Source: a phage
Direction: 5' to 3' (one strand)
DNA length: 64,000 nucleotides
Sequence record: OZ346219.1
Part shown: one piece after another, positions 14,445-46,531 of the stretch
Layout: the number at the start of each line of letters is the position of its first letter
Position numbering within the stretch: the stretch's first letter is position 1
Made by a program: the position numbers and the translations under genes
Notes under the pieces: generated by a model
The model's database searches: none
Told to the model about the DNA's origin: nothing
Seen by the model: only the letters and a program-made list of their open reading frames with translations

Positions 14445-15269
14445 TTACCAACCTCGCTCTTTACCAATCAAAAATTCAACTTCACGACGTTTAATGTCTT
14501 CTTGAAGGTCTTTAATCTTCTGGCGATCTTGCATTATTTCGTCCATCTTGTCAAGTGCTGCGATGAAATCATCGAAACGTTCAAAGGTTTTACCTTCATT
14601 TGCTTCGCTAAATTTAACCATTGTCAGGCCATAACGACTACTAAACAGACGTTTCAACTGTCCAACGATCTTAGAATCAGTGGTTATAACTTCCAATTCT
14701 TCTACTTCACGAAAGAATTTTCTATCAGAATCAATAAACCAGCTAGTTCCTTTATGGTCGCTATCTTCGGTTGCACTCATTAGAGTATGGTCTTTACCAT
14801 CAATTTCAATTACATTAACTTGCCCACATAGACTAACATTTTTAACAGTAAAAGGTCTATAATTTATTGCTCGTGCAATAACATAATTAAGGTTAGATAC
14901 GTTTTCAGCATAATGACAGAAGTCGGTCATAGCATTCGCATCTTTCCAAGTATAAGTTTTACCAACTTCCCATTTCTGGGGAACTTCTTCAACTTCACGA
15001 AAGAATTTTCGATCGAATGGACTAAAGAAATATGTTGCAGTCCAAATGTCTTTTCCTGTAGCAGTTTTCGCCGTATGATAAACACCGTCTAGCTCTATTG
15101 CATTAATCCAACCGTTACCCTCGATCTCGATGATGGTAAATGGCTTGTCACCAATAGCTGCACTAATATCGCTGTTAAGTGGAGAAAGAACACCTTCTCC
15201 GTTAGTAATAAACTCAGTTTTAGAGTTTTCATCTTTCCAAGTGTAAGTTTTACCAATTTCCCATTTCAT
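14445..15269 (-). CDS. WEVGKTY-family paralogue, internally duplicated
   Basis: 274 aa; two copies of the ~95-aa module (MKWEIGKTYTWKD and QKWEVGKTYTWKD, each followed by DRKFFREVEE); AAGGGG SD. Confidence 0.55.
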   Translation of the reverse strand: MKWEIGKTYTWKDENSKTEFITNGEGVLSPLNSDISAAIGDKPFTIIEIEGNGWINAIELDGVYHTAKTATGKDIWTATYFFSPFDRKFFREVEEVPQKWEVGKTYTWKDANAMTDFCHYAENVSNLNYVIARAINYRPFTVKNVSLCGQVNVIEIDGKDHTLMSATEDSDHKGTSWFIDSDRKFFREVEELEVITTDSKIVGQLKRLFSSRYGLTMVKFSEANEGKTFERFDDFIAALDKMDEIMQDRQKIKDLQEDIKRREVEFLIGKERGW

Positions 15270-15281
15270 AATATATTCCCC

Positions 15282-15746
15282 TTAACCGATTTTATCAAGT
15301 TCGTTTAATGCTTTCTCTGCTTCCGGTATAGCTTGCACCCTTTCCGGCATTTTGTCAAGAAAATCTTTCAACTCTTCAAAACTGGAGATATGACGCAAGG
15401 CATTAGCACCGATAGCCGCATGTGATTTGCATTCAAAGCGAATTTTATAATTATCCATAGCCAATTTGAGAAGATCAATTAGTTTAGATTCTTCTGGAAT
15501 AATAATTTCTTCAAATCTGCTACGGTCGTGACACAGAAACCAACAATATAGACCTACATCGGTTGAACTCATATAAGTTCCATCATGAAGATATACAGAT
15601 CGCACGTATCCTTTTTTCGCATCAACCGACGCAACTTTAAACGGTAATCTCAGATATTTCAAATAATCAACATCATACCATTTAAAAAATTGTTTTGCAT
15701 CTTTTACATCTTTCCACGCATAGGTCTTACCAACTTCCCATTTCAT
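15282..15746 (-). CDS. WEVGKTY-family paralogue
   Basis: ATG 15746 (MKWEVGKTYAWKD) 7 nt after upstream stop. Confidence 0.5.
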   Translation of the reverse strand: MKWEVGKTYAWKDVKDAKQFFKWYDVDYLKYLRLPFKVASVDAKKGYVRSVYLHDGTYMSSTDVGLYCWFLCHDRSRFEEIIIPEESKLIDLLKLAMDNYKIRFECKSHAAIGANALRHISSFEELKDFLDKMPERVQAIPEAEKALNELDKIG

Positions 15747-15750
15747 AATA

Positions 15751-16278
15751 TCATCTCTCATTTTTGATACGTGATTCTAATTGGATCATACGGTCGCGCG
15801 TTTGCTTATATTCTCGGATAGCACCGATCCGGCTAGGCATACCATCCAGTACGCTCTTAATACCTTCTAGGGTAGTGATTTTAGCAATGCTATTATGTAA
15901 CCCCATCTTATCGATCAACTGAATGTCGTAGGCTTCCATAAGCAGACCCAGGAGTTCTAAAGTTAGGTCTTCTTCTTTTTCTTCCGATTCTGGAATCTTA
16001 GGTTCAATAGTAACTTCGGTAAAGAAACGACGCTCACCAGACCAAAACCACACACCGGAACAGCCAATAGGGGATTCTTTTAACGTCATAGAGTCGTAAC
16101 CACTTCCGATAATAGTAATTTCTCTAACATCACCATCATCGTCAATGTCTTCTACCATAAACGGGCGACCAGCCAACAGGTCCACAATACATCTGTTAAT
16201 AGACGACGAAAATTTAGTCAGTTCGGCTTTCGACGCTTCACATTCAATCTTGTAAGTTTTACCAACTTCCCATTCCAT
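15751..16278 (-). CDS. WEVGKTY-family paralogue
   Basis: ATG 16278 (MEWEVGKTYKIE) with GAGGTGA SD overlapping nrdG stop. Confidence 0.5.
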   Translation of the reverse strand: MEWEVGKTYKIECEASKAELTKFSSSINRCIVDLLAGRPFMVEDIDDDGDVREITIIGSGYDSMTLKESPIGCSGVWFWSGERRFFTEVTIEPKIPESEEKEEDLTLELLGLLMEAYDIQLIDKMGLHNSIAKITTLEGIKSVLDGMPSRIGAIREYKQTRDRMIQLESRIKNER

Positions 16279-16288
16279 AATAATCACC

Positions 16289-16792
16289 TCAAATAATTTT
16301 CACTGGAATACTATTAACAATCTTGTATTGTACTTGATTGTCAGACCCCCGCCACGGCTTCTTCGTTGGCATATCTTTAATATAACGCCCATCGATGAAC
16401 ATGTCAACAGATTCTACAATTTTTCTTTGCTCATCATTCAATTGGTCAAGGGTATAACCAGACCATAGCCAAATATCTTTATTTGGCATCCATGATTTTA
16501 CTTCATCGATGATCCGCTGTACACCCTTTAAATTGCGTTTATACAATGGATCGCCACCTAAGAATGTTAGTCCCTGAATAAAATCAGGTCTAAGCAGATC
16601 CAGAATCAATCCCATTGTATCATCGGTGAATGGTTCCCCGTTCTTAGGATTGAGTAGGCTAGCATTAAAGCAACCATCACATGCGTGTGAACATCCGGTA
16701 ACGTAAAGGGAGACTCTCACTCCCTCACCGTTAACCATATCACAATCTTTAATATCGGCATAGCGTAGTTTGCCGTATGTATCAGAACTCAT
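16289..16792 (-). CDS. nrdG: Anaerobic ribonucleotide reductase activating protein (radical SAM)
   Basis: CSHACDGC cluster near N-terminus typical of NrdG; adjacent to nrdD as in T4; ATG 16792. Confidence 0.85.
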   Translation of the reverse strand: MSSDTYGKLRYADIKDCDMVNGEGVRVSLYVTGCSHACDGCFNASLLNPKNGEPFTDDTMGLILDLLRPDFIQGLTFLGGDPLYKRNLKGVQRIIDEVKSWMPNKDIWLWSGYTLDQLNDEQRKIVESVDMFIDGRYIKDMPTKKPWRGSDNQVQYKIVNSIPVKII

Positions 16793-16934
16793 ATTCAATT
16801 ACCCCGAACTCGTTTACAATCTGCGCTTTATAGTAACCACCGCGAGATGCTAATAGATAAGCTGGGCTTAGGTATTCGTATTCACGGATTTCTACTTGTG
16901 CGTTTTCAGTTTCCCAAATCAGTAAAGTCCACAT
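16782..16934 (-). CDS. Hypothetical small protein (50 aa)
   Basis: ATG 16934 with AGGAGAATCAAAT leader, directly downstream of promoter 16977-17005. Confidence 0.35.
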   Translation of the reverse strand: MWTLLIWETENAQVEIREYEYLSPAYLLASRGGYYKAQIVNEFGVIEYEF

Positions 16935-16976
16935 ATTTGATTCTCCTGTAAAGTTGTATCTCGTCTTGATGAATAT

Positions 16977-17005
16977 AGTATAGGGGATCTCGCGATCCCC
17001 GTCAA
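16977..17005 (-). promoter_or_regulatory. Sigma70-like early promoter with stem-loop spacer
   Basis: Minus strand TTGACG-GGGATCGCGAGATCCCC-TATACT; 17-nt palindromic spacer. Confidence 0.55.
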
Positions 17006-17009
17006 GCAT

Positions 17010-17537
17010 TTATTTTAAATTTTTTCGAATGTAGTCAGACCATTCCTTCCCTGTCAGTTCGGTCCCATTCTGGAAACTGAAATATTCATACGGCATCGAG
17101 TCAAGATAAAACAGGATCATACATCGCGCCATATAATACCAATCACGATTAAAGTAAACTACGTTATCGCCAGTACCATCAGCACCTTTATCATAACCAT
17201 CGCGGGTACGGGCGACCCATTGAATAGTATCATTTTTCTCACGGATCGTAACAGGTTCCCAATATCCAGCACATCCAGCATGACCACACGAACAAGTAAG
17301 GAAATATTGTCCTTTTGCTTTGTTGTCGTCCCATTCACGATGGATTGGTTCGATCTCGTGAAACAGTGCTAAGCAATCATGATTATGCAACACTGGCTTA
17401 CCATCAATCAATGCATGGAATGTATACAAACGACCCGTAGACAAATAGCTATCCTCACGCTCAACCAGTTCAATAGCAATCTTTTTAGCTCGTTCTTTGT
17501 GTCGTTGTGCTTTACGCTTACGGTTTAATGATTTCAT
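17010..17537 (-). CDS. Hypothetical protein
   Basis: ATG 17537 with GAGGTGA SD; basic N-terminus, Cys/His-rich middle. Confidence 0.45.
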   Translation of the reverse strand: MKSLNRKRKAQRHKERAKKIAIELVEREDSYLSTGRLYTFHALIDGKPVLHNHDCLALFHEIEPIHREWDDNKAKGQYFLTCSCGHAGCAGYWEPVTIREKNDTIQWVARTRDGYDKGADGTGDNVVYFNRDWYYMARCMILFYLDSMPYEYFSFQNGTELTGKEWSDYIRKNLK

Positions 17538-30200: not shown

Positions 30201-30433
30201 TTTGATTATATTTTATTCACGTCCATTTGTATAGTAGTGTTTGAATCGACCTTTGCTAAACTAGTTAAACATAGTAACCAATTCACCATCCCTTTCCAAT
30301 GATAACCCTTCCTCGTCTTAGACGGGTCTTCCGATTCGGCAGTAATTGAACACGCGAAAGTATGAGGAAGCCAAATAGTTGTGTTAATGCTAGTATTCTT
30401 TTACTTCTGGTATGCATCCCACGGTGACTAACA

Positions 30434-30832
30434 TTAAGACAGTCGAGTGAGTTTATAAATTGTTTTAAAACATAGAGCTTTGATATCGTCTAAAACGCTC
30501 TGTAACGAGCTATCAACATCATTATAAATCTCACTAGCCATTTGCGTTAACTCTTGCAAATAGGCAATTTCGCTAATCTCCTTGCGGACGACCAACGTTG
30601 GCTGATAACGACCAGTGATCCCAATATTGGTTTCAGTGAAATCATCAACCAATTCTTGCATTTCAAGATAGAACTCTTCTAGAGCCTTATGTTTTGCATA
30701 AGATCCAGGACCAGTTACCCCAAAATGCGCAGAATGCATATAAGTAACACTCATCAGACATTCACCGATAAAGCGGTCAACTTTATTAGCTTTCCCCTCT
30801 TCGGACGTCTTTAGAAAATCAATGAATTTCAT
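30434..30832 (-). CDS. Possible Dps/ferritin-like protein
   Basis: 132 aa from ATG 30832 (GGAGAA SD); YMHSAHFGVTGPGSYAKHKALEEFYLEMQELVDDF resembles the Dps helix-A/B signature (AHWNMRG..F..HE....); call is motif-level only. Confidence 0.35.
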   Translation of the reverse strand: MKFIDFLKTSEEGKANKVDRFIGECLMSVTYMHSAHFGVTGPGSYAKHKALEEFYLEMQELVDDFTETNIGITGRYQPTLVVRKEISEIAYLQELTQMASEIYNDVDSSLQSVLDDIKALCFKTIYKLTRLS

Positions 30833-31121
30833 GTTCTCTATTCTCCATATTATGCAACATAACAAACTGTTGTGCGGCATATTCCCCCATAATAAAACAC
30901 TGCTTAGAATCCATACATTTACTACGAGCATACATCTTCATAATATGGGCATGAAATTTCTGGCTGGTTTCAATGGAAGGAGATATTTTGTTTACATATA
31001 CTATCATTGCACCGTCGAAATAATCAGTAAAGTCACCAGTTGGATCATATTGATCAGCACTGACACTTCCGACCGCAGTCAAGCATATTGCCGCTGTTAG
31101 AGTTTTACGAATAAATGACAT
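30819..31121 (-). CDS. Secreted/periplasmic small protein
   Basis: 100 aa; N-terminal signal-peptide-like MSFIRKTLTAAICLTAVGSVSA; overlaps next gene start by 14 nt. Confidence 0.4.
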   Translation of the reverse strand: MSFIRKTLTAAICLTAVGSVSADQYDPTGDFTDYFDGAMIVYVNKISPSIETSQKFHAHIMKMYARSKCMDSKQCFIMGEYAAQQFVMLHNMENREHEIH

Positions 31122-31189
31122 AAGTCATTCCCCCAGATTTAAAATATTCAGTTATATTTATAATCTGGGGCTTTATTTATGATTAACTC

Positions 31190-31786
31190 TTAGTTGGTAG
31201 TGCCATCAATAAAATGTTTACGGCACACAGAAACATATTTATCCTCTGCACCAACTTCGATTTGAGCACCATCGCGAATAACATTACCCTCTTTATCTAC
31301 ACGAAGGACCATTGTTGCTTTCTTGCCACAATGACAAATACCCTTCATTTCGACCAGTTTATCAGCAAATGCCATCAATGCCGCAGATCCTTCAAATAGA
31401 TTGCCCTGAAAGTCAGTGCGAAGGCCATAGCACAGTACAGGGATATTTGCATCATCAACAAGCGCACACAAGCCTAAAACATGCTCTTTAGTCATAAATT
31501 GGGCTTCATCTACAAATACAGCATCAGGACGCCAGAGATCTGGTCTACGCTTACCTAACGATTCACGATAAACCAAGTCGAAAAGATCATCCGATTCCGT
31601 GAAGGTGATTGCGGGAGCACTTAGACCAATTCGTGAAACAACTTCACTTTCTGAATCTCGATTATCAATCGCTGGCTTAAGAATTAATACTCGCATATCA
31701 CGTTCGGTATAGTTATAAGCACTTTGTAACAGAGAAGTTGATTTGCCAGCGTTCATAGATGCATAGTAGAAATATAGTTGCGCCAT
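31190..31786 (-). CDS. tk: Thymidine kinase
   Basis: 198 aa; P-loop MNAGKSTSLL, VDEAQF, CHCGKKA zinc site; aligns to recalled T4 Tk; GGAG SD. Confidence 0.9.
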   Translation of the reverse strand: MAQLYFYYASMNAGKSTSLLQSAYNYTERDMRVLILKPAIDNRDSESEVVSRIGLSAPAITFTESDDLFDLVYRESLGKRRPDLWRPDAVFVDEAQFMTKEHVLGLCALVDDANIPVLCYGLRTDFQGNLFEGSAALMAFADKLVEMKGICHCGKKATMVLRVDKEGNVIRDGAQIEVGAEDKYVSVCRKHFIDGTTN

Positions 31787-32079
31787 TAATTAATCTCCAA
31801 AAATCCAGCAAGACCTAAACCGATATAAGTCCAGATACAAAGGAAAAAGAAGCAAACACCCATAGCAAAGATAAATCCGCGTAGTGTCTTTGGATAACCT
31901 ACCCAATATTCCCGACCATCTTCTAACCGGATCAACTTATTGCCTTGCGAGTCCATATCAACTACAACATGTTTATTTCGAGATTGCAATAGATATTGTT
32001 TTACAATCTCTACACCCGACATAATAACAATAACGAAAATAAAAATCCACACAACAAGATTAATGATAGTCTCAAGCAT
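31786..32079 (-). CDS. Hypothetical membrane protein
   Basis: 97 aa with two hydrophobic helices. Confidence 0.4.
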   Translation of the reverse strand: MLETIINLVVWIFIFVIVIMSGVEIVKQYLLQSRNKHVVVDMDSQGNKLIRLEDGREYWVGYPKTLRGFIFAMGVCFFFLCIWTYIGLGLAGFLEIN

Positions 32080-32314
32080 TTTCTATCACCTCCACCCAAT
32101 CAGGCGTTTCCTGAAAGACTCCTTCGCCTTCATGATGGTCGCAACCTTTATTGCTGCAATACATCCACCAATCCCACATTCCCCACGGTAAACGCTGCAT
32201 ATCGTCGTTACAGCAAGTGAAGATGATAGGCCAACCACATCTAACACATCGGCAGTTTTCTTTCATGTGAGCGGTATTAGGCTTCTTCATAGATGACTCC
32301 AATATAATCGACAT
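32072..32314 (-). CDS. Hypothetical Cys/Trp-rich protein
   Basis: 80-aa track ORF; CRCVRCGW...CCND...CSNKGCDHH. Confidence 0.35.
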   Translation of the reverse strand: MSIILESSMKKPNTAHMKENCRCVRCGWPIIFTCCNDDMQRLPWGMWDWWMYCSNKGCDHHEGEGVFQETPDWVEVIENA

Positions 32315-32517
32315 TTACATTTAGGGCAATGCGGTTCTTTAATATAATACCCGTCTGTCTTTGGAACACTAACAGGAGCGGTTTTTATATTGTATTCGGT
32401 GAAACAACGAAAACAAGTTACGTTTTCTACAGACTGACGTTTCACCCAATCACCGGAATATAGATCATTTTTATTTGTCATATTCAACCACCACAATGTT
32501 AATGTCTGGAGTAGCAA
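32287..32517 (-). CDS. Hypothetical zinc-ribbon-like protein
   Basis: 76-aa track ORF; CFRCF...CPKCKC. Confidence 0.35.
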   Translation of the reverse strand: MLLQTLTLWWLNMTNKNDLYSGDWVKRQSVENVTCFRCFTEYNIKTAPVSVPKTDGYYIKEPHCPKCKCRLYWSHL

Positions 32518-32926
32518 TATTAATGATCTCTTCTACACATTCCCACTCAAGGCCACCGATACCGCAACCGATTTTAGGAATATAGAAAGGCTGTATAGCA
32601 CCCTCAAAAACATCATTGAGAGACTCAAATCCTTTCAGGATAGCACCATATTCAGCATTTGGACCCGGTCGGAATTGGGTATAGAGATTCACCCCGCACC
32701 AGTTATAACCATTAACTTGATGCGTCCAGACACTAAACCCACCCAGCTTTTCGACCTTACCGCGAGAAGTTTGCTTGTCAATCTCTAACGCTTGCGGGAA
32801 CTCTTTCGCGATCTTCGCAGCAATACCAGCACCCATAGTATGAAAACAATTACAACCATGAATTAAATGACCGTTTCCTTGTTTAAACAGGGCGATGAGA
32901 TCGCCCTTTACAGTATCAATAATCAT
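32471..32926 (-). CDS. Macro-domain protein (ADP-ribose binding/hydrolase fold)
   Basis: 151 aa; IIDTVKGDLIALFKQGNGHLIHGCNCFHTMGAGIAAKI parallels the macro N-terminal signature (V.GDIT...VNAAN...GGGVDGAI); C-terminal PKIGCGIGGL parallels the P-loop-like IGTGVYG; GAGAGG SD. Confidence 0.55.
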   Translation of the reverse strand: MIIDTVKGDLIALFKQGNGHLIHGCNCFHTMGAGIAAKIAKEFPQALEIDKQTSRGKVEKLGGFSVWTHQVNGYNWCGVNLYTQFRPGPNAEYGAILKGFESLNDVFEGAIQPFYIPKIGCGIGGLEWECVEEIINIATPDINIVVVEYDK

Positions 32927-32941
32927 AATATAAACCTCTCA

Positions 32942-33301
32942 TTAGTCACGGGAAGACAACCCAGCCATAAAACGGCTTAACAGTGTGTCGCGATAAGCAA
33001 AGCATAATTGCTTATCAGGGGCAGTATCACACAGGTTACGTTTTGTTTTAGCAAAGCTGGCAATACTCAGATCCCACGCTCGATTTTTTCGTTTTTCGTC
33101 TCGACCTTGTTTGTATGCTTCATCAAGTTCGAGCGCGATAAAATCACTACACATGTTATCATCATCACAGAAAGTTTTAATGATCTTTTTGTTGATCTCA
33201 AATCCTTTGTATTCAAACTTTGGATAAGGGCGCTCATTACTAGCAAGCGCACCAGCAGAGAACATCATAGCAATCATAGCAATTATTGTCAACTTTTTCA
33301 T
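32942..33301 (-). CDS. Secreted/periplasmic protein
   Basis: 119 aa; signal-peptide-like MKKLTIIAMIAMMFSAGALAS; GAGGAA SD. Confidence 0.45.
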   Translation of the reverse strand: MKKLTIIAMIAMMFSAGALASNERPYPKFEYKGFEINKKIIKTFCDDDNMCSDFIALELDEAYKQGRDEKRKNRAWDLSIASFAKTKRNLCDTAPDKQLCFAYRDTLLSRFMAGLSSRD

Positions 33302-33308
33302 ATATTCC

Positions 33309-33899
33309 TCAATAGCGTTTAGTCTTAAGAATGCCTTTACTCTTTAGATGGTTAGCCTTTTTTAGTACGTCATCAGCATAACCTAATCCGGCTTTATAGT
33401 TCCATCCAGCATTGTAAGAAGCTAGCGCGAGTCGGATATTACCGTTTCGAACATCCAGCCAGTATGCTAACTCATCCATCGCGTAGAATGCAGAAACCTC
33501 GCGATTCATGATAAAGTTGATAGTCTGGCGATCACTCATTTTAACACCGCGCTTTGCATTTTTCGCTTTCACCGTTTTAAGGTAATTTTGAAATAATCCA
33601 TAAGCATGATGATTTTTCTTTGGTGCTAAGTTTGCACCCGCGCTTGATTCTTGCCATGCGATACCCGCCAGGATGTGACCTAAACCCTTTCCGTTATAGC
33701 GAATATTCGGATGGTCCTTTTTCAACTTACCGCTTTTCTCGAATTGTTCGCCGTATTGATAGGCGAAATGTAAATTATCTAGTTGGTGTGCTGTAAAGTT
33801 GTCTATCGGCGCTTTTTTGATCGGTGCGCTAGTCGATGCGTGTGTAGCACCAACGGCTAGTGACAGACTCAATACTATCGCTTTTAGAACTTTTAACAT
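33309..33899 (-). CDS. Lytic transglycosylase (SLT domain) with signal peptide
   Basis: 196 aa; signal-like N-terminus; SLT motifs IAWQESS, YGLFQ, SYNAGWN; AGGAGA SD. Confidence 0.65.
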   Translation of the reverse strand: MLKVLKAIVLSLSLAVGATHASTSAPIKKAPIDNFTAHQLDNLHFAYQYGEQFEKSGKLKKDHPNIRYNGKGLGHILAGIAWQESSAGANLAPKKNHHAYGLFQNYLKTVKAKNAKRGVKMSDRQTINFIMNREVSAFYAMDELAYWLDVRNGNIRLALASYNAGWNYKAGLGYADDVLKKANHLKSKGILKTKRY

Positions 33900-33984
33900 T
33901 AATTTCTCCTGTTTGGCTTAACTTTCTGATTCCATAATATAGCCATATCACCAGAAAGTCAAGCATTATTTTAACCAATCTCCA

Positions 33985-34407
33985 TTATTGGTCTACCTTC
34001 AAAACAACAGCCGACATTTTACCCGCCAGTCGTTTTGGATTCTCTATAATCATTCGGCAGCATAGACCGTGATATGGCTTACCCTCTTCGATTAGATCTA
34101 CTGTCATCCCGATCCACATGTTACCGTCAGTAATTTCTAATCGATTCGGTCGGTCTTCCATTTTCAGGAAGTCGAAGATCTCCGGCAAACGAGTTTCTAT
34201 CTTATTGAATAGTTCCATTGTCTTATGTTCATCGATATGACGATCGGTTAGACGGTCGATCATATGCGGACTAAAGCGAATGAAAATATACTCACCATAA
34301 CCATCATTCAAGCACTTTTCTTTGATCTTCGCATTGGTTTTGCGCATTTCGGTTTCGAAGAATCTACGCAGCTTACTACGGCGAACATGTACGTTAATTG
34401 TTTCCAT
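33985..34407 (-). CDS. Hypothetical protein
   Basis: ATG 34407 with AAGGA SD. Confidence 0.4.
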   Translation of the reverse strand: METINVHVRRSKLRRFFETEMRKTNAKIKEKCLNDGYGEYIFIRFSPHMIDRLTDRHIDEHKTMELFNKIETRLPEIFDFLKMEDRPNRLEITDGNMWIGMTVDLIEEGKPYHGLCCRMIIENPKRLAGKMSAVVLKVDQ

Positions 34408-34411
34408 TTTA

Positions 34412-34747
34412 TTATCCTTTCTTAAACAAATTGCGAATCCAGTATACAAACGGGATTTCTTTAAACTTGAATTTCTCTATAGTTAATTCTTTAGTAGCAA
34501 GATGAATACCATAAGCATCATGTGTCACGATATGCCATTTTCTATAGTCCAAATGTGAACAACCGTCTGGATCTAGGTTAATAAGAGTTTCTCGCTCACT
34601 AGGATTATTTTTCCACAATTTTGTAATAGGATCGCACATAATTCGACCTAGCGTACCATGAATAATCTCACAACGGTAAAGTTTTCCAGCAGTGAGATAG
34701 GCGCACCCGTCATAGTCGGTATAAACAAACACTTCTTTAACACTCAT
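34412..34747 (-). CDS. CSHL-family protein (long form)
   Basis: ATG 34747 with AAGGAG SD downstream of promoter 34776-34804; DPDGCSHLDYRKWHIV. Confidence 0.4.
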   Translation of the reverse strand: MSVKEVFVYTDYDGCAYLTAGKLYRCEIIHGTLGRIMCDPITKLWKNNPSERETLINLDPDGCSHLDYRKWHIVTHDAYGIHLATKELTIEKFKFKEIPFVYWIRNLFKKG

Positions 34748-34775
34748 TTTAATACTCCTTTGTTTCGATGGGGGT

Positions 34776-34804
34776 ATATTACTACCCCCGTTTTGTTGTG
34801 TCAA
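34776..34804 (-). promoter_or_regulatory. Sigma70-like early promoter with stem-loop over -10
   Basis: TTGACA-N17-TAATAT; GGGGGTA/TACCCCC hairpin. Confidence 0.5.
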
Positions 34805-35065
34805 CTACTTTTTCAAGATTTTTTTAATTGCGTTCCAAAGACCTTTATTCTCAGGTTGTTTTGGTTCTTCGATCAGTGTCCAGGTTCGACCGTCTAAGTG
34901 TGCGCAATTTTTAAGACAAATAAAAATCTGGTGTCCTTTATCATCACGGATATAACCACTATTCGCAAATCTTTCATGTGGTGTATATTCATACAGTGTA
35001 TTTGGTGTAATATACTTGCGGTTACTATAAGGTGTCATCACATACATCATGGTACTAACTCCCAA
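34805..35065 (-). CDS. CSHL-family small protein
   Basis: 86-aa track ORF; KNCAHLDGRTWTLI. Confidence 0.4.
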   Translation of the reverse strand: MGVSTMMYVMTPYSNRKYITPNTLYEYTPHERFANSGYIRDDKGHQIFICLKNCAHLDGRTWTLIEEPKQPENKGLWNAIKKILKK

Positions 35066-35241
35066 CGATCACCGCGAAGATGAGAACATCCACCATCAAG
35101 AAGGATCGTAATACGATAACCTATATCATCTTTGATGTAACCGATTGTCGGTGGATTTTCGTAGTCTCGTGTCGGGGTAAAATCATACATCTTTCCTGGC
35201 GTAATATCTTGTCCTTTATTGCTATTGGTATAAACTTTCAT
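35047..35241 (-). CDS. CSHL-family small protein
   Basis: 64-aa track ORF; DGGCSHLRGDRWELV. Confidence 0.4.
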   Translation of the reverse strand: MKVYTNSNKGQDITPGKMYDFTPTRDYENPPTIGYIKDDIGYRITILLDGGCSHLRGDRWELVP

Positions 35242-35262
35242 TTTCTTAATCTCCTATATTAA

Positions 35263-35709
35263 CTAACCACGGGTATAGTGTTCCAGAACAACGGTCAGAT
35301 GAATATATTCTAATAAATCTTTCCAAAAGTCAACATCTGGTTCTTCCGGCATACCGTTTTTCTTTGCCTCTTCACGAGCGAGTTTAACCCGCTCGTAGAG
35401 ATCTTTCAATTCTTCCCGCACATTATCAAAGGTTCTTTCTCCTAACTTACACGCTAAAATAGAAGAACGTCGCGCGAGCGGGAATTGTAGATCACCTGTC
35501 TGATAGATTTCAAGTAGCTGATAACCAACACGCAGAGCATGAGAAAGATCTTTCCAGTTACTGAAATACTTTTCAGATTTGGCTACCTGCTTTTTGAGAT
35601 AGCCAGACAAACCCCACATACCAACATGATAGAATTTATCTCGATGTGTTCGGATGTATTCCCATTCTCTGGAGGATTCAATCAACATGTTACTAGGAGC
35701 GTGCACCAT
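35263..35709 (-). CDS. Hypothetical protein
   Basis: 148-aa track ORF; no SD at either candidate ATG; 5' end overlapped by HNH gene. Confidence 0.35.
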   Translation of the reverse strand: MVHAPSNMLIESSREWEYIRTHRDKFYHVGMWGLSGYLKKQVAKSEKYFSNWKDLSHALRVGYQLLEIYQTGDLQFPLARRSSILACKLGERTFDNVREELKDLYERVKLAREEAKKNGMPEEPDVDFWKDLLEYIHLTVVLEHYTRG

Positions 35710-40366: not shown

Positions 40367-40585
40367 TTATTTATATCGCTTTCTATCGCGACGTTTTTGG
40401 TCTTCTTCCTTGATAGAGTTAAATGCATCAAAAAGACACATGACACTAATAATAAACATAACCGTATTTTCTACGATATCCCACGGCTTCGCATCAGTAC
40501 AGATCCCCCAAACGGTAAGAAATGCAAATAAGGCAGAAGAGATCACAAGAATGATACTTGCTAAGATATAAAAAGTCATTTTCAT
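40367..40585 (-). CDS. Small membrane protein
   Basis: 72-aa track ORF, hydrophobic, basic C-terminus. Confidence 0.35.
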   Translation of the reverse strand: MKMTFYILASIILVISSALFAFLTVWGICTDAKPWDIVENTVMFIISVMCLFDAFNSIKEEDQKRRDRKRYK

Positions 40586-40776
40586 GGTTTTACCTCAATT
40601 CTTCGATATTCATCACACATCCACGCAGTAAGCAAGAATCCCAGCACATAAGAAACAAAATACGTTAATGCTTCTTCTGGTTTCGTGCTATGTATCATCA
40701 GTAAACCAGCGAGAACGGTCTTAACAATTACATTTAAAATAATTAGCCACGCAAATAATTTCATCGTTTGCCCCAT
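40582..40776 (-). CDS. Small membrane protein
   Basis: 64-aa track ORF, hydrophobic. Confidence 0.35.
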   Translation of the reverse strand: MGQTMKLFAWLIILNVIVKTVLAGLLMIHSTKPEEALTYFVSYVLGFLLTAWMCDEYRRIEVKP

Positions 40777-41000
40777 TTCGGTCGAGTCTTTTCAAACTTA
40801 TACATTCCGTAACAATCTCGAATCATCCACGTAACAAGAGCACCAGTCAACACAGACAATACACAGAAGAAGTAAAACGGTCCGGTTGCATTATCAACAT
40901 GAGCAAGCCAGGTAAAGAAAACACATGCTAAGAATGTAAAGAACATCATAAAACACAAGAAAGCAAAATATTTTATGCTACTCATAGCGCCACCATACAA
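40761..41000 (-). CDS. Small membrane protein
   Basis: 79-aa track ORF, hydrophobic. Confidence 0.35.
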   Translation of the reverse strand: MYGGAMSSIKYFAFLCFMMFFTFLACVFFTWLAHVDNATGPFYFFCVLSVLTGALVTWMIRDCYGMYKFEKTRPKWGKR

Positions 41001-41088
41001 CAGATCATAAGAAAACCAAACGCAATAAGAATTGCATCAAATTTAGTGAACTCAGGTCCACCTATCAACATCATTCGTTCTATTTCGT

Positions 41089-41286
41089 TCATAGCGTACA
41101 AAGCCATTTAAAAGCACCACATAAAGCGATCAAAAGACTAGGTATAAACGAGATTACAACAAGACCAAAAAAATCATCTAAGGTAACACCGGAATAGCTA
41201 CCTACTGTAACAACACCGATCATCAGACACAGAAAGAAAACAAATGCAAGCATAAACAAAGTATTGCTAAACAGTTTAGTGATCAT
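41089..41286 (-). CDS. Small membrane protein
   Basis: ATG 41286 with GTGGGGTG SD (track start 41331 overlaps upstream gene by 56 nt). Confidence 0.35.
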   Translation of the reverse strand: MITKLFSNTLFMLAFVFFLCLMIGVVTVGSYSGVTLDDFFGLVVISFIPSLLIALCGAFKWLCTL

Positions 41287-41479
41287 TAGACACCCCACGA
41301 CGATCAATTTCAAAAACTTTTTTATCATCAACGAAGCATGTCACAACTGCCTCGTTGACTTCCGCAAATTGTTGTGTTACCCACTTAAGGTCAGAGCGAA
41401 ACAATGTTCTATTAATAACAAATGTTTTACCGCTCTTATCCTTACCCATAAATTTTGCTTTAACCATATCAAATTCCAT
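41276..41479 (-). CDS. Hypothetical small protein
   Basis: 67-aa ORF; AAGGTGATA SD overlapping upstream stop. Confidence 0.4.
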   Translation of the reverse strand: MEFDMVKAKFMGKDKSGKTFVINRTLFRSDLKWVTQQFAEVNEAVVTCFVDDKKVFEIDRRGVSNDH

Positions 41480-41488
41480 ATTATCACC

Positions 41489-41647
41489 TTATTTGCTAAT
41501 CGCTAAACCCAATCCGAAGAGAGCACCCGATGCTACAGTATACCCGAAAGTTTCAAAGGCAGTAAAGATATCTAAGCCACCAGCTAACAGAGTTGCAGTA
41601 AACAGAGTACCAGCTACGAACATAAAAGTTTTACCGATAAATTTCAT
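41489..41647 (-). CDS. 52-aa membrane microprotein
   Basis: Read by hand, below track cut-off: MKFIGKTFMFVAGTLFTATLLAGGLDIFTAFETFGYTVASGALFGLGLAISK; AAAGGAGAATCAAA leader downstream of promoter 41679-41707. Confidence 0.4.
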   Translation of the reverse strand: MKFIGKTFMFVAGTLFTATLLAGGLDIFTAFETFGYTVASGALFGLGLAISK

Positions 41648-41713: not shown

Positions 41714-42088
41714 TTAAGAATATTTTACTTCGTCTACAATGTCTTTCATGACATTGATTTCCATTCCGGTCAGAACACGTTGGAACATGTGCTGAACATA
41801 CGCTTTCAGATATTCATTTGATGGCTTGCTATCAAAAGTCTTTTTAGTGTAGTAGTCATCACCGAAAGCTACTGTAATTACATTTTCGTCGTCGTTCCAA
41901 GCGATATAAGCAAATTTGCCGTTATCCCAGAAGCGAGCACTAATTGCTACTTTTGTTGAATCGAATCCTACTTCGCTGTGAGATTCAAGAACTACTTGCG
42001 TGCCAGTTTCTTTATGAATGTAGTAGCGGGATACTAAGTCAAAGTTACGGGTGTAGTGACATTCGAATTTATCTTTAAACAACATCAT
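41714..42088 (-). CDS. Hypothetical protein
   Basis: 124-aa ORF downstream of promoter 42127-42155. Confidence 0.45.
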   Translation of the reverse strand: MMLFKDKFECHYTRNFDLVSRYYIHKETGTQVVLESHSEVGFDSTKVAISARFWDNGKFAYIAWNDDENVITVAFGDDYYTKKTFDSKPSNEYLKAYVQHMFQRVLTGMEINVMKDIVDEVKYS

Positions 42089-42126: not shown

Positions 42127-42155
42127 ATTATGCTATAGTCGTTTATGGTTGTCAA
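42127..42155 (-). promoter_or_regulatory. Sigma70-like early promoter
   Basis: TTGACA-N17-CATAAT after terminator 42166-42195. Confidence 0.55.
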
Positions 42156-42165
42156 CACCTAAAAA

Positions 42166-42195
42166 CAAAAAACCCCGAAAAATTTTTCGGGGTAT
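42166..42195 (-). terminator. Rho-independent terminator
   Basis: Minus strand ACCCCGAAAAATTTTTCGGGGT then TTTTTGTTTTT. Confidence 0.65.
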
Positions 42196-42199
42196 AGAA

Positions 42200-42664
42200 T
42201 TACAGTTTGGTCGTCCACTCCAGGTCTAGATCTTCGACATACTCATGAGATCGGACAATCTCTAAATCGAACTCTAGGTCAGTACCAAATTTACGCGCAC
42301 CAACATCATAAGAAAGCGTGATATGCGGTACATATTCAGGATAATCCCACGTCGCACCTAAAGCAGTGCCTATATCGTGTCTGAATTGCATGTAGTCGCT
42401 TTCAAATGCCAACACAAGCGCATTAGTACCGGATTGAGTTTCAAACACTTTAAGATGGCATAGAGAGCCTAAAAACTTTTCACCCTCTTCTGGTATAAAC
42501 GGAACATAGACACGAGAATATAAGATAGTGCTATGCAGTTTATCACGAGGAACGGCATTAGGCAGATCGTAGAACTCCTGCAATTTTTCAATGCGGTCTA
42601 GTGTATCCTCAGTGAATTTAACCGCCGCATATGTACCTTTAACGGATTCTCTAAACGGGGTCAT
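42200..42664 (-). CDS. 2H-phosphoesterase-like protein at the position of T4 57B (Acb1-like candidate)
   Basis: 154 aa from ATG 42664 (GGAGG SD); two H-x-T/S-x motifs (LHSTIL, PHITLS) ~70 aa apart; sits 57B-57A-1 as in T4. Confidence 0.55.
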   Translation of the reverse strand: MTPFRESVKGTYAAVKFTEDTLDRIEKLQEFYDLPNAVPRDKLHSTILYSRVYVPFIPEEGEKFLGSLCHLKVFETQSGTNALVLAFESDYMQFRHDIGTALGATWDYPEYVPHITLSYDVGARKFGTDLEFDLEIVRSHEYVEDLDLEWTTKL

Positions 42665-42666
42665 AA

Positions 42667-42918
42667 TCAAGCCTCCGTGATCAGTTCTACTTCCTCTTCC
42701 GCTGCGTCGTCTTTAGGGAGAAGTGCTTTCACTTCTTCGACAATAGCATCAAGGGAAACAGTCCCGTTTTCGTCTGGCTGAATACCCAGAATGCGTACCA
42801 GTTCCATCAATACACACTCACGATCTTTCAGTTGGCCTTCTAAGAATGCGGCCTTTTCTTGAGTGTCAAACAGACGTACTTTCAGGACATTAATCATTTG
42901 TTCATGCTGATTGGACAT
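42667..42918 (-). CDS. Small acidic coiled-coil protein at the position of T4 57A
   Basis: 83 aa from ATG 42918 (AGGAG SD); heptad-like N-terminus, acidic tail DDAAEEEVELITEA; positional assignment. Confidence 0.5.
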   Translation of the reverse strand: MSNQHEQMINVLKVRLFDTQEKAAFLEGQLKDRECVLMELVRILGIQPDENGTVSLDAIVEEVKALLPKDDAAEEEVELITEA

Positions 42919-42950
42919 ATTCACATCTCCTACTTGTTGATAACTTTTTA

Positions 42951-43607
42951 TTAAATGTTCGCGAGAATCGCGCTTTCAAATTCTTCTAATGTACCATTAT
43001 TTATGATAATGGTTTCACCGTCAATAGGCAAAATTCCTTTTTCGGTGGAGTGAGTAGATACAATACCAGTATCACGCTGAATATGCAACACCTTAGCACC
43101 CATAGCACGCATGAGAGCAATTTCAATAGGCTGACGCACATCAACCACTACAAAATACCCTTCTTCATTTTTGCGCTTCATAAACTCATCCACAAAGAGA
43201 TTACACCAATAAAGCGGATTGATCAAGTTAACCATTATATCAGTACCGAGAGTGGTTAACATGAGACGAATAGACCAGACGTTATTATGTTTTTCTCCGA
43301 TCTCATTAACAACCTTGTAAATCTCAGCCAGACGATCACAAGTAAAGGAACTACCGCCATACTTCGAATCTAGCATAAGCAGACACTGAATAAACCACTT
43401 ATGCGCGGTATATGTATCAATACCTAGATCGGCTTCTCTGTCACGCCCTAACCCATCAAAGTCAAGATAAGTCAGACCTAAGTCTGGTTGACATTCGCAT
43501 AAGATTTCTTTGATCGGTGCTGCCAGTTGATAACTATGTCCATCAATTATTAACGCGGCAGTGTCTTTTCCTACTCGCTTTTTACCACAAAGTGCAATCA
43601 GTTTCAT
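42951..43607 (-). CDS. 1: Deoxynucleoside monophosphate kinase (gp1-like)
   Basis: 218 aa; P-loop MKLIALCGKKRVGKDTAA aligns to T4 gp1 MKLIFLSGVKRSGKDTTA; also LMRAMGAKVLHIQR and C-terminal NNGTLEEFESAI; AAGAGG SD. Confidence 0.85.
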   Translation of the reverse strand: MKLIALCGKKRVGKDTAALIIDGHSYQLAAPIKEILCECQPDLGLTYLDFDGLGRDREADLGIDTYTAHKWFIQCLLMLDSKYGGSSFTCDRLAEIYKVVNEIGEKHNNVWSIRLMLTTLGTDIMVNLINPLYWCNLFVDEFMKRKNEEGYFVVVDVRQPIEIALMRAMGAKVLHIQRDTGIVSTHSTEKGILPIDGETIIINNGTLEEFESAILANI

Positions 43608-43622
43608 TATATAAGCCTCTTA

Positions 43623-44213
43623 TTACTTTCTAAAAGCAGGGTGCATAGCTTTAATACCTTCCACCCGCTGACGATCCGCCGCCTGAATTGCTGGGCGAGG
43701 AACGATCAGTTGACCATCACGTTCAATGCTCATTGTTTTAAAGGGAAGAATTGCAGTACACACCAGAGATTCATGCATATCATCGGTGTATGTTAACTCA
43801 AGTTCCCCCAATTGTGAACACCAACAACCATAAAAGTTAAAAGTGCACACAATGTTACGTCGTTCGTTGTCCATCATGTGAACTTGAACGGCTTCCGGCA
43901 TTGAATCCTTCCACGCAGTGGAGTTACCGTTATTGTAGTCTACTATAGAAAGCATCCATGTGTAAAGGTTTAGATAGCTTTCCAAATGCTCATCGACAAT
44001 AAACCGGACTACCAACGGGTCAAACTCCACATGACTAGACGGATAATCAGCGACCGCCAAACCATATTGACCAGCAACTTGCTTAGTCGGTGGAATGGTT
44101 ATAGCAGGAAGTGTAACACCTTGAGCATTTAAAGTAAAGCCTTTTGTTAGCTGTCCATCTGGAATATTGATCTGCCAGTTGCTAGGGTTAGCATAGTTAA
44201 AGAGATTAGACAT
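43623..44213 (-). CDS. Putative tail completion/sheath stabiliser (gp3-like by synteny)
   Basis: 196 aa; GAGGAA SD; lies between gene 1 and the gene-2 candidate as in T4; late-promoter-like AATAAATA upstream; no sequence-level confirmation. Confidence 0.45.
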   Translation of the reverse strand: MSNLFNYANPSNWQINIPDGQLTKGFTLNAQGVTLPAITIPPTKQVAGQYGLAVADYPSSHVEFDPLVVRFIVDEHLESYLNLYTWMLSIVDYNNGNSTAWKDSMPEAVQVHMMDNERRNIVCTFNFYGCWCSQLGELELTYTDDMHESLVCTAILPFKTMSIERDGQLIVPRPAIQAADRQRVEGIKAMHPAFRK

Positions 44214-44402: not shown

Positions 44403-44657
44403 ATGACAGAAGACATTTTGTTAAAACTCTATGATCGTCTGGATAACGAATTAGCAACATTGCGGGGTGAAGTTCTCTATTTGTCTAAATGCAATACAGA
44501 TCTGCTTAAGCAGATTGCAGAAAGGGATGATCAAATAAAATCCCTTTCAGGTGCATTACGTGATCGCGACAAGGCATTAGAGATTTTACAGCGTGTTACC
44601 AATAAGGAAGAATTAAAAGACTTCTTACATGGTTATGCTCATGCTATCGATCTATAA
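44403..44657 (+). CDS. Hypothetical coiled-coil protein
   Basis: 84 aa; only plus-strand gene inside the minus block; GAGGA SD; ends at bidirectional terminator 44657-44690. Confidence 0.4.
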   Translation: MTEDILLKLYDRLDNELATLRGEVLYLSKCNTDLLKQIAERDDQIKSLSGALRDRDKALEILQRVTNKEELKDFLHGYAHAIDL

Positions 44658-44690
44658 TAAAAAAGCCCGTCAATGACGGGCTTAATTTTT
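44657..44690. terminator. Bidirectional rho-independent terminator
   Basis: AAAAAAGCCCGTCAATGACGGGCTTAATTTTT; serves plus gene 44403-44657 and minus gene 44689-45741. Confidence 0.65.
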
Positions 44691-45741
44691 AATATGTATC
44701 AGCTAATTTAATTATGTTATCAAGTTCCGTGATTGGTAAAGTTTCTGTGTATCCATCTTTCAACATGGATTTATCAACAACGCCACAATGATAAGTTCTC
44801 TTTATTTCCTTTTCAAGTTCCCACGGAATCCAGCCATCAACACTTTGTTTGACGTAAACAAGTTTGTGAACAAACTTAGATTTCTGCATATGTTGTTTCA
44901 TTCTGGTTTCCGGTAATTCATTGGTTACACCAAACTTTATAAATTTATCATCTAACGTCTGGATATAAAAATATCCCATCTCAGATGGACGATAGCCAGA
45001 AGAACTACATTTCGGACACCCTTTAGCATTTCTGTTGAACGTACAATATCTTACGGAAAATTCTGCATCATGTTTTGTACATTTAAGTTTTATCCATGAA
45101 TTTGCAGTACCTATCCATTCACCATCGACACCTATATATTCATACCCTAACTTTTTACATTTATCTTCTATTCTAGATAGTGCATCTTCCACGGGAACGA
45201 CATATTCCATCTTAAATTGTTCAGCCGCGCATTTCTTACAACCACATGTACCATGATTTTTAAAATCAAAGAACTTTGTATTCTTCCAAATATGGTCATG
45301 TTTCTTGCATCTAAGAATCATCTTAGTAATTTGTGATTTCCACCCACCAACAAATCCCAAAAATTCATAATCAAGATCTTTACATTTTTCTTCAATGAAT
45401 TTGGTTGCTTCCTCTTCTGTCATAACTCCCCTACATTGAGGGCAACCAACAATAACCTTTTTAGCATAGAAACTATTACTGGAAACATCATAGACAGATC
45501 CATGCTTATTGCATTGGATAACAGATCTAGTCAATTTTCCTTTCCATTCTCCAGAAAATCCTAAAAATGTATGGTCGACAAGTTTACACCTCTCAATAAC
45601 TTTGTCCGCAAATTCTCTAGGAGATTTTGTTACTTTGTTTACTCTGTATTCTATTTCTTCCGGTTGACGAAGATCATAAACGTGGGGATTGCTCCCCACG
45701 GAATTAATATTAAGCATCCTTCCACACCTTCCTTGCATCAT
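44689..45741 (-). CDS. GIY-YIG/T5orf172-like nuclease-domain protein with three tandem Cys-rich repeats
   Basis: ATG 45741 (AAAGG SD; track start 45819 overlaps upstream gene); three ~60-aa repeats F.EKC..L.YEFLGF.GEWKG...C.KH...GCP.C then C-terminal GYFYIQTLDDKFIKFGVTNELPETR; sits between the gene 3 and gene 2 candidates. Confidence 0.5.
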   Translation of the reverse strand: MMQGRCGRMLNINSVGSNPHVYDLRQPEEIEYRVNKVTKSPREFADKVIERCKLVDHTFLGFSGEWKGKLTRSVIQCNKHGSVYDVSSNSFYAKKVIVGCPQCRGVMTEEEATKFIEEKCKDLDYEFLGFVGGWKSQITKMILRCKKHDHIWKNTKFFDFKNHGTCGCKKCAAEQFKMEYVVPVEDALSRIEDKCKKLGYEYIGVDGEWIGTANSWIKLKCTKHDAEFSVRYCTFNRNAKGCPKCSSSGYRPSEMGYFYIQTLDDKFIKFGVTNELPETRMKQHMQKSKFVHKLVYVKQSVDGWIPWELEKEIKRTYHCGVVDKSMLKDGYTETLPITELDNIIKLADTY

Positions 45742-46531
45742 AGTTTTTACCTTTAGAAACAAATTTATATGTGTTAAGGTAGATAATATTGCTCCAGTCT
45801 TTCGGGCTAATCTCAACAAGTTTTGTTTTAATGTGTCCAGGTAGATATGCTTTGATCATGTGATCACTTCCACGCATACCTTTTACATCGCTCCATTTGA
45901 TTTTTAAGCGTGTTTTATTGCTCAAGGTAGGAGTAGATGCATATTGCTTTAAAAGTGCCTCTAAAAACTGCTGACGGGCTTTAGGCGTTACATAGTGTAA
46001 GTTAAGACCCAGCATTACAGTATTACCCGCCTTTGTCTTAGAATCACCCAGACAAATGATCAGCGGGAAAACATCCCAATATGGCAAAGTGTCTTTATAC
46101 TTCGCATCATACATAAAGGTATAGATTCGCCCTACTTGCGGTTTTACAATCTGGTGTCCCTTTATTCCCGCTTTTATTGTTTTAGTAAACCACTCCTGTG
46201 ATTTTTCTTTAGGACGACTCTTTGATACAGCACGCATAGACGCACGAAAATCATTAATCATCATCATTGCGCGTTGCTGCTTATTGAGACCCTTTGCTCC
46301 TTTCCCTTTTAGTTTTTCAACTTCTATTGCTGTTTTAATTTCGCTGGCATAACGAGACATACTTTTAGTGAAAGTCGCATAGGCTATTCCCTTAGAATCT
46401 GCAAATGCTTTAGCTGTCATACCTTTGGCTTTTGCTTTCGCAAATTCTACACCCAATTCGACCCACTGTTTAGACTTTCGTTTTTGGGGAGACGGCTTTT
46501 CGTCTTCTGTGATTATTTCAAATACGCTCAT
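45710..46531 (-). CDS. Putative DNA end-protector (gp2-like by synteny and size)
   Basis: 273 aa (T4 gp2 is 274 aa), strongly basic; GAGGATAATATT leader; position between gene 4 and gene 3 candidates. Confidence 0.5.
   Translation of the reverse strand: MSVFEIITEDEKPSPQKRKSKQWVELGVEFAKAKAKGMTAKAFADSKGIAYATFTKSMSRYASEIKTAIEVEKLKGKGAKGLNKQQRAMMMINDFRASMRAVSKSRPKEKSQEWFTKTIKAGIKGHQIVKPQVGRIYTFMYDAKYKDTLPYWDVFPLIICLGDSKTKAGNTVMLGLNLHYVTPKARQQFLEALLKQYASTPTLSNKTRLKIKWSDVKGMRGSDHMIKAYLPGHIKTKLVEISPKDWSNIIYLNTYKFVSKGKNYDARKVWKDA

Follow-up and report, generated by a model that had tools for sequence, protein, structure and literature searches.

Positions 42200-42664 of the 64,000-nucleotide phage DNA analyzed here (sequence record OZ346219.1, hereafter the window) almost certainly encode the Krischvirus (RB49/JSE-type) orthologue of T4 Acb1, a small, metal-independent 2H phosphoesterase. 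The protein belongs to the Acb1 family, has the Acb1 fold in its predicted structure, conserves the functional residues of the family, occupies the same place in the gene order as in T4, and is under purifying selection. By homology, its enzymatic activity, substrate range, and anti-CBASS effect are most likely those of the known Acb1 enzymes.

The origin of the window was established through a 2.8-kb stretch around acb1, which identified the source as a Krischvirus of the RB49/JSE type with 98-99% nucleotide identity to 59 phage records. All 59 records were RB49/JSE/Phi1-like, and those that were opened were classed as Krischvirus, Straboviridae. The closest match to this region was phage kaaroe, at 99.0% identity.

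The acb1 frame was read on the minus strand from the ATG at 42664-42662 to the TAA at 42202-42200, which yielded 154 codons. The first-pass annotation had placed the gene at 42200-42664, and this is exactly the CDS with the stop codon counted in. The list of open reading frames extended the frame up to a TTG at 42670, but this start was rejected on account of where the ribosome-binding site and the 57A stop codon lie and how JSE and RB49 are annotated. The ATG at 42664 was preferred, because GGAGG is found 7 nt upstream and the TGA of the 57A-like gene (42669-42667) sits 2 nt ahead of it. An identical 465-nt CDS is annotated in the JSE and RB49 records. The 2-nt spacing between the 57A stop and the acb1 ATG suggests translational coupling. 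The features of the locus are collected in Table 1.

Table 1. Coordinates of acb1, its sequence elements, and its neighbors in the window.
Feature	Position	Strand	Details and evidence
Gene 3, tail completion and sheath stabilizer protein	43623..44213	minus	phrog_45 E=4.9e-43; Pfam Phage_T4_gp19 E=1.9e-7; JSE annotation
Gene 1, deoxynucleoside monophosphate kinase	42951..43607	minus	Pfam DNMK E=4.5e-68; JSE annotation
57A-like tail-fiber assembly chaperone gene	42667..42924	minus	GP57 E=1.9e-6 (28 bits vs 27); phrog_1002 E=1e-25; JSE annotation
GGAGG Shine-Dalgarno/RBS of acb1	42672..42676	minus	Within the last 57A codons, 7 nt upstream of the ATG; sequence read
acb1 (57B orthologue) CDS	42200..42664	minus	154 aa + TAA stop; ORF, sequence, homology
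First catalytic motif, H44-S45-T46-I47	42524..42535	minus	CATAGCACTATC, read from the sequence; corresponds to T4 H44/T46
Second catalytic motif, H114-I115-T116-L117	42314..42325	minus	CATATCACGCTT, read from the sequence; corresponds to T4 H113/T115
C-terminal lid region, residues 144-154, including E144 and W150	42203..42235	minus	Alignment to T4
Intrinsic-terminator-like hairpin (ACCCCGAAAAATTTTTCGGGGT) followed by TTTTTTGTTTT	42162..42193	minus	Begins 7 nt past the acb1 stop; terminator scan
Promoter-like TTGACA-17-CATAAT	42155..42127	minus	Near-consensus, 11/12 matches; ahead of the 124-aa ORF
124-aa ORF in the slot of T4 ipI	41714-42088	minus	phrog_15253; Pfam Gp30.7 sub-threshold, E=0.004
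Dmd homologue, 67 aa	41276-41479	minus	Pfam Dmd E=1.5e-15; phrog_2102 E=2.3e-31
rI to regB region, including tk, tk.4, vs, and vs.1	about 30400-35300		

Family membership was evident from the profile search. The Pfam Acb1 model (PF23474) matched residues 9-152 over profile positions 1-143 of 144 (E=1.5e-51), and its score of 174.4 bits stood well above the curated cut-off of 27. All 64 homologues found carried the same domain. Among the PDB sequences, phmmer returned a sole match, Acb1 of Erwinia phage FBB1 (7T26/7T27), which covered residues 10-153 with E=1.8e-43. The first-pass annotation had named an alignment to T4 57B/Acb1 as a check of its proposal. This alignment gave 47.7% identity over 151 aligned residues with NP_049750.1 (tblastn E=5.6e-41). 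The proposal was to be dropped if the similarity stayed limited to the generic motifs; the match to Acb1 covered the whole protein. The accompanying statement that T4 gene 57B had been reported as Acb1 agrees with the literature (PMC9117128; NP_049750.1).

We then considered the fold. An AlphaFold2 model was built from an alignment of 62 sequences, from which the T4 sequence was left out, and it reached a pLDDT of 91.6 and a pTM of 0.84. The model was disordered at residues 1-5 and 151-154 only, and the pLDDT below 50 at residues 151-154 is in line with a mobile lid. The predicted structure is a compact 2H fold with a β-sheet pocket at its center and can be superposed on solved Acb1. A Foldseek search against the PDB ranked 7T26 first (target-normalized TM of 0.97, rmsd of 0.9 Å over 138 columns, E=2e-16) and 7T27 second. 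With the profile match, the PDB sequence match, the superposition, and the conserved functional residues in hand, the original assignment to the Acb1-type 2H phosphoesterases held.

The existing labels point to a different enzyme, a generic 2H phosphoesterase of RNA metabolism, which would be a LigT-like 2'-5' RNA ligase or a 2',3'-cyclic phosphodiesterase that works on the ends of RNA or tRNA. The group phrog_755 is termed 'RNA ligase', and RefSeq gives 57B of JSE and RB49 the same name. Weak Pfam matches to 2_5_RNA_ligase2 (E=0.0011) and LigT_PEase (E=0.057) were also obtained, and LigT structures appeared in the fold search at E ~4e-4. However, PF13563 scored 19.4 bits against a gathering score of 27 and PF02834 scored 14.1 against 23.3, as compared with 174 for Acb1. 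LigT- and CPDase-type enzymes from the PDB were superposed on the model by Foldseek with a TM of ~0.5, and for LigT the rmsd was 6-7 Å, far from the values obtained for Acb1. The sub-threshold Pfam scores and the TM of ~0.5 exclude a LigT/RNA-ligase identity at the family level. In addition, the Acb1-specific ligand contacts are present (Y12, the aromatic residue at 74, E144, and W150 of the lid), and T4 57B bears the 'RNA ligase' label, yet it was shown to be Acb1. An RNA-processing enzyme is therefore highly improbable, and the label used by RefSeq and PHROGs appears to be a name inherited from the 2H/LigT superfamily.

The Acb1 assignment was then followed to the level of single residues. 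H-x-[ST] motifs occur exactly twice in the protein, as HSTI (residues 44-47) and HITL (residues 114-117), and both had been pointed out in the first-pass annotation. As sufficient proof, this motif pair was rejected. It is weak alone, because 6 of the 45 comparable stop-to-stop segments of the window (120-200 aa) carry at least two such motifs, and the significance comes from the whole-protein matches. For T4 Acb1, the functional residues are described as an HxT/HxT tetrad (H44, T46, H113, and T115), the base-stacking aromatics Y12, W74, F107, and W147, and E141, which contacts the adenine N6 (PMC9117128). The alignment placed T4 Y12, H44, T46, W74, and F107 on window Y12, H44, T46, F74, and Y108, and T4 H113, T115, E141, and W147 on H114, T116, E144, and W150. 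The window protein has the complete tetrad (H44, T46, H114, and T116), an aromatic residue at each stacking position (Y12, F74, Y108, and W150), and a glutamate aligned with that contacting the adenine, and the lid residues 145-154 are present. Judged from this alignment, all residues named as functional in PMC9117128 are kept or conservatively replaced.

The same positions were inspected across the family. H44, T46, S50, H114, T116, L117, and Y119 were invariant in 63/63 Acb1 family members. Position 74 was occupied by F or W in all 63 (F in 41/63), and position 108 by F, Y, or W in 59/63 (Y in 15/63). Glutamate was found at position 144 in 57/63 members and tryptophan at position 150 in 48/63.

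The T4 and FBB1 Acb1 enzymes, as described in PMC9117128, offer a mechanism for the window protein. T4 Acb1 cleaves 3'3'-cGAMP, cUA, cAAA, and cAAG 3' of adenosine in a metal-independent manner; cGG and cA4 are left uncut (PMC9117128). T4 Acb1 and nine further homologues all cut 3'3'-cGAMP and cAAA in vitro (PMC9117128). Deletion of acb1 from T4 led to a plating loss of more than 300-fold on CBASS hosts, and the mutant grew normally without CBASS (PMC9117128). The window Acb1 would capture 3'-5'-linked cyclic di- and trinucleotide CBASS signals containing at least one adenosine (3'3'-cGAMP, cUA, cAAA, and cAAG). The ligand would be held in the U-shaped β-sheet pocket, and the C-terminal lid would shut over it. 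The bases would be stacked by the aromatic residues Y12, F74, Y108, and W150, and the adenine N6 would be read by E144. Strain imposed on the ligand would lead to attack of the adenosine 2'-OH on the neighboring 3'-5' bond, a step catalyzed by the tetrad of H44/T46 and H114/T116. The reaction would pass, without a metal, through a 2',3'-cyclic phosphate intermediate to a linear 3'-phosphate product. Removal of the signal would leave the CBASS effectors inactive, and the phage would escape abortive infection. In the window, acb1 forms the last cistron of the 3-1-57A-57B unit, with a ribosome-binding site of its own and an intrinsic terminator after it.

The lysate screen of PMC9117128 included the RB49-type phage vB_EcoM-G2494, the protein of which shares a 90% cluster with the window Acb1. 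In the literature, our search turned up no biochemical or genetic experiment made directly on the window orthologue itself. The protein gp156 of phage MM02, called Acb1 in PMC12657230, was set aside as evidence, because MM02 is absent from the Krischvirus nucleotide matches.

The same fold could also serve a main target other than CBASS, such as the cA3 of type III CRISPR or the Panoptes-type 2'3'-c-di-AMP, or act with a specificity shifted from that of T4. Cleavage of cAAA could indeed counter type III CRISPR as well (PMC9117128), and T4 Acb1 also degrades 2'3'-c-di-AMP, the product of mCpol, thereby triggering the Panoptes defense (PMC12657230). For the latter system, however, degradation of the signal sets off the defense and is not evasion (PMC12657230). 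This liability of T4 Acb1 probably applies to the window Acb1 too. As regards specificity, W and F are replaced by F74 and Y108 in the Krischvirus clade, and two residues are inserted before the lid. The replacements W74→F and F107→Y and the insertion at 131-132 could alter the fine substrate preference of the window Acb1 relative to T4. Against another main target or a shifted specificity, all nine further homologues tested cleaved 3'3'-cGAMP and cAAA (PMC9117128). A shifted substrate range is conceivable, but nothing speaks positively for it, since both variant residues are frequent among family members (F74 in 41/63 and Y108 in 15/63) and both occur in the FBB1 enzyme, which was solved with 3'3'-cGAMP. 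All in all, a non-CBASS main target or a shifted specificity is unlikely, and an Acb1 directed against CBASS signals is the preferred reading.

A more specific proposal is that the Krischvirus Acb1, through F74, Y108, and the 131-132 insertion, differs from T4 in range, e.g., by better cleavage of the 2'-5'-linked 3'2'-cGAMP and 2'3'-c-di-AMP, that it bears the whole anti-CBASS load, and that it is the sole Panoptes trigger. We consider this combination distinctly unlikely. The Acb2 sponge (T4 Vs.4) was sought in the 64-kb window by tblastn, and none was found (best E=1.7). The vs-regB region, which is the site of vs.4 in T4, is present in the window, and Pfam detected no Acb2-type domain in the ORFs adjoining regB. 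When T4 Vs.4, IpI, IpII, IpIII, Vs.3, Vs.5, and Trna.2-4 were compared with the window, no tblastn match was better than E=1.3.

The product of tk.4 is a 151-aa macro-domain protein (32471-32926, minus strand; Pfam Macro E=6e-7), equivalent to Tk.4 of T4 and JSE. The annotation of Tk.4 reads 'phosphatase' and mentions an A1pp motif. Since macro domains bind or remove ADP-ribose, a counter-defense role is conceivable for this protein.

We next examined the conservation of the gene. The window acb1 and the JSE copy show 7 nucleotide differences, and 7/7 are synonymous. A protein at least 99% identical to the window Acb1 is encoded in 56 of the 59 Krischvirus records (95.7-99.6% nucleotide identity), and the exact window sequence was found on 316 contigs in public collections. 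From these comparisons, the acb1 frame is judged to be under purifying selection. This pattern speaks against an inactive remnant or a protein retained for a non-catalytic role, as do the intact frame and the presence of every catalytic residue in the window. Frameshifts in phages Cognac and TB34 may mean that the gene is dispensable, and T4 Δacb1 is normal without CBASS. These frameshifts may themselves be sequencing errors, that of Cognac lying in a T5 homopolymer. A degenerate or non-catalytic protein is extremely improbable, and a functional acb1 remains the reading adopted here.

The frameshifted copies deserve a short description. In the GenBank record of phage Cognac (locus from MZ504877.1, 301-764), acb1 lacks 1 nt of a T5 run near codon 64, and the annotation splits it into ORFs of 64 and 82 aa. 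In that of phage TB34 (locus from OX001802.1, 301-767), acb1 contains two insertions of 1 nt each, near codons 22 and 147. Sequencing error and natural loss of function could each account for these two cases. Natural loss could resemble Bas43, an acb1 nonsense mutant that is naturally resistant to Panoptes (PMC12657230).

The surroundings of acb1 were compared with those in JSE and T4. The order 57B-57A-1, which the first-pass annotation had likened to that of T4, was recovered as 3-1-57A-57B on the minus strand of the window, an order shared by JSE and T4. T4 57A gave no tblastn match in the window, and the 57A-like gene was recognized by profile searches only. The terminator scan showed that the hairpin 3' of acb1 has a 9-bp stem with 5 G-C pairs and a T-run, and the record of phage TB34 has a terminator annotated at the corresponding place after acb1. 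As read from these sequence signals, the 3-1-57A-57B unit ends at a putative strong intrinsic terminator. The T4 late promoter motif TATAAATA was discarded; it occurred 4 times in the window vs ~6 expected by chance, and none of these sites was near acb1. Sigma-70-like matches inside gene 1, e.g., 43024..42996, are consensus matches only.

Downstream of the terminator, the 124-aa ORF yielded chance-level matches alone among the PDB sequences (E of at least 0.09). It is a candidate for an uncharacterized early or anti-defense protein. The Dmd homologue follows acb1 on the same strand, ~720 bp further downstream. Since the 124-aa ORF and a 52-aa ORF are all that separates the two, acb1 and a second known counter-defense gene are near neighbors. 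T4 Dmd is an antitoxin that counteracts the toxins RnlA and LsoA. In T4 itself, dmd is located elsewhere in the genome. In the window, acb1 heads a run of small early-type genes with at least one further counter-defense gene, the Dmd homologue.

Very small ORFs, overlapping or abutting each other, form a run at 40367-41331 and 41489-41647 on the minus strand (72, 64, 79, 41, 80, and 52 aa). Judged by eye, their translations look strongly hydrophobic and membrane-like. All but the 41-aa ORF were scanned, and each matched a group with no function assigned (phrog_15168, 15717, 15290, 17225, and 16462).

On the other side of the unit, a 376-aa ORF (44689-45819, minus strand) lies between genes 3 and 2. 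It contains repeated CapR-homology domains (PF21817, E=1.1e-14) and is annotated 'endonuclease' in JSE; an 84-aa ORF on the plus strand (44403-44657) adjoins it. Unlike the window, T4 has no genes between genes 3 and 2, which gives this region the appearance of a mobile or homing-endonuclease-type cassette that was inserted here. In JSE (NC_012740.1, 14510-17132), nrdD, encoding the anaerobic ribonucleotide reductase, is annotated in two pieces with a homing endonuclease gene between them. By offset, this JSE region would fall at approximately 14500-17100 of the window.

The identification is correct, but it is already known. UniRef lists the exact sequence under 'Anti-CBASS protein Acb1', Krischvirus (Q7Y455_BPRB4), so the finding concerns an already-known protein, and Hobbs et al. 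2022 (PMC9117128) had described the family with its mechanism and structure. In most GenBank/RefSeq Krischvirus records, acb1 is listed as 'hypothetical protein' or 'RNA ligase'. The practical value of the result is an annotation correction for the Krischvirus acb1, and the biology itself is not new. Acb1 is confirmed as intact and maintained by selection in RB49-type coliphages. This bears on predictions of how such phages, several of them candidates for therapy or biocontrol, perform on CBASS-positive and Panoptes-positive hosts.

Among the known systems compared, T4 Acb1 is the founding anti-CBASS nuclease. In both phages, acb1/57B is the final gene of 3-1-57A-57B. A potential stem-loop and an early promoter separate 57B from ipI in T4, and the window has a terminator and an early-type promoter at this place. 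The gene that follows is different, as the window carries the unrelated 124-aa ORF (phrog_15253) and not ipI. The proteins are of similar length (154 aa in the window vs 152 aa in T4), and the window protein retains the HxT/HxT tetrad, Y12, the Glu that reads the adenine, and the Trp of the lid. They differ in F74 for T4 W74 and Y108 for T4 F107, and the window protein has one additional residue after G79 and two at 131-132, in the strand preceding the lid.

FBB1 Acb1 provides the closest solved structure (7T26 apo and 7T27 with 3'3'-cGAMP), with 52% identity according to Foldseek. Like the window protein, it carries F at 74 and Y at 108, but it differs in host range and in the two-residue insertion (131-132) of the window protein. 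The next-best structural match was a phage 2H-type phosphodiesterase from Burkholderia phage BCSR5 (9Q2Y/9Q2G), known in open and closed lid states. Its TM was ~0.7 (E=2e-7), and its identity to the window protein was only 16-18%; our literature search found no paper on this enzyme. The LigT/2'-5' RNA ligase-type 2H enzymes (e.g., E. coli LigT 5LDI; PF13563 and PF02834) have the superfamily fold and the two HxT/S motifs in common with the window protein. They are larger (~170-185 aa) and share 11-12% identity with it, and the Acb1 model, with its lid region and base-stacking residues, fits the window protein far better (174 bits).
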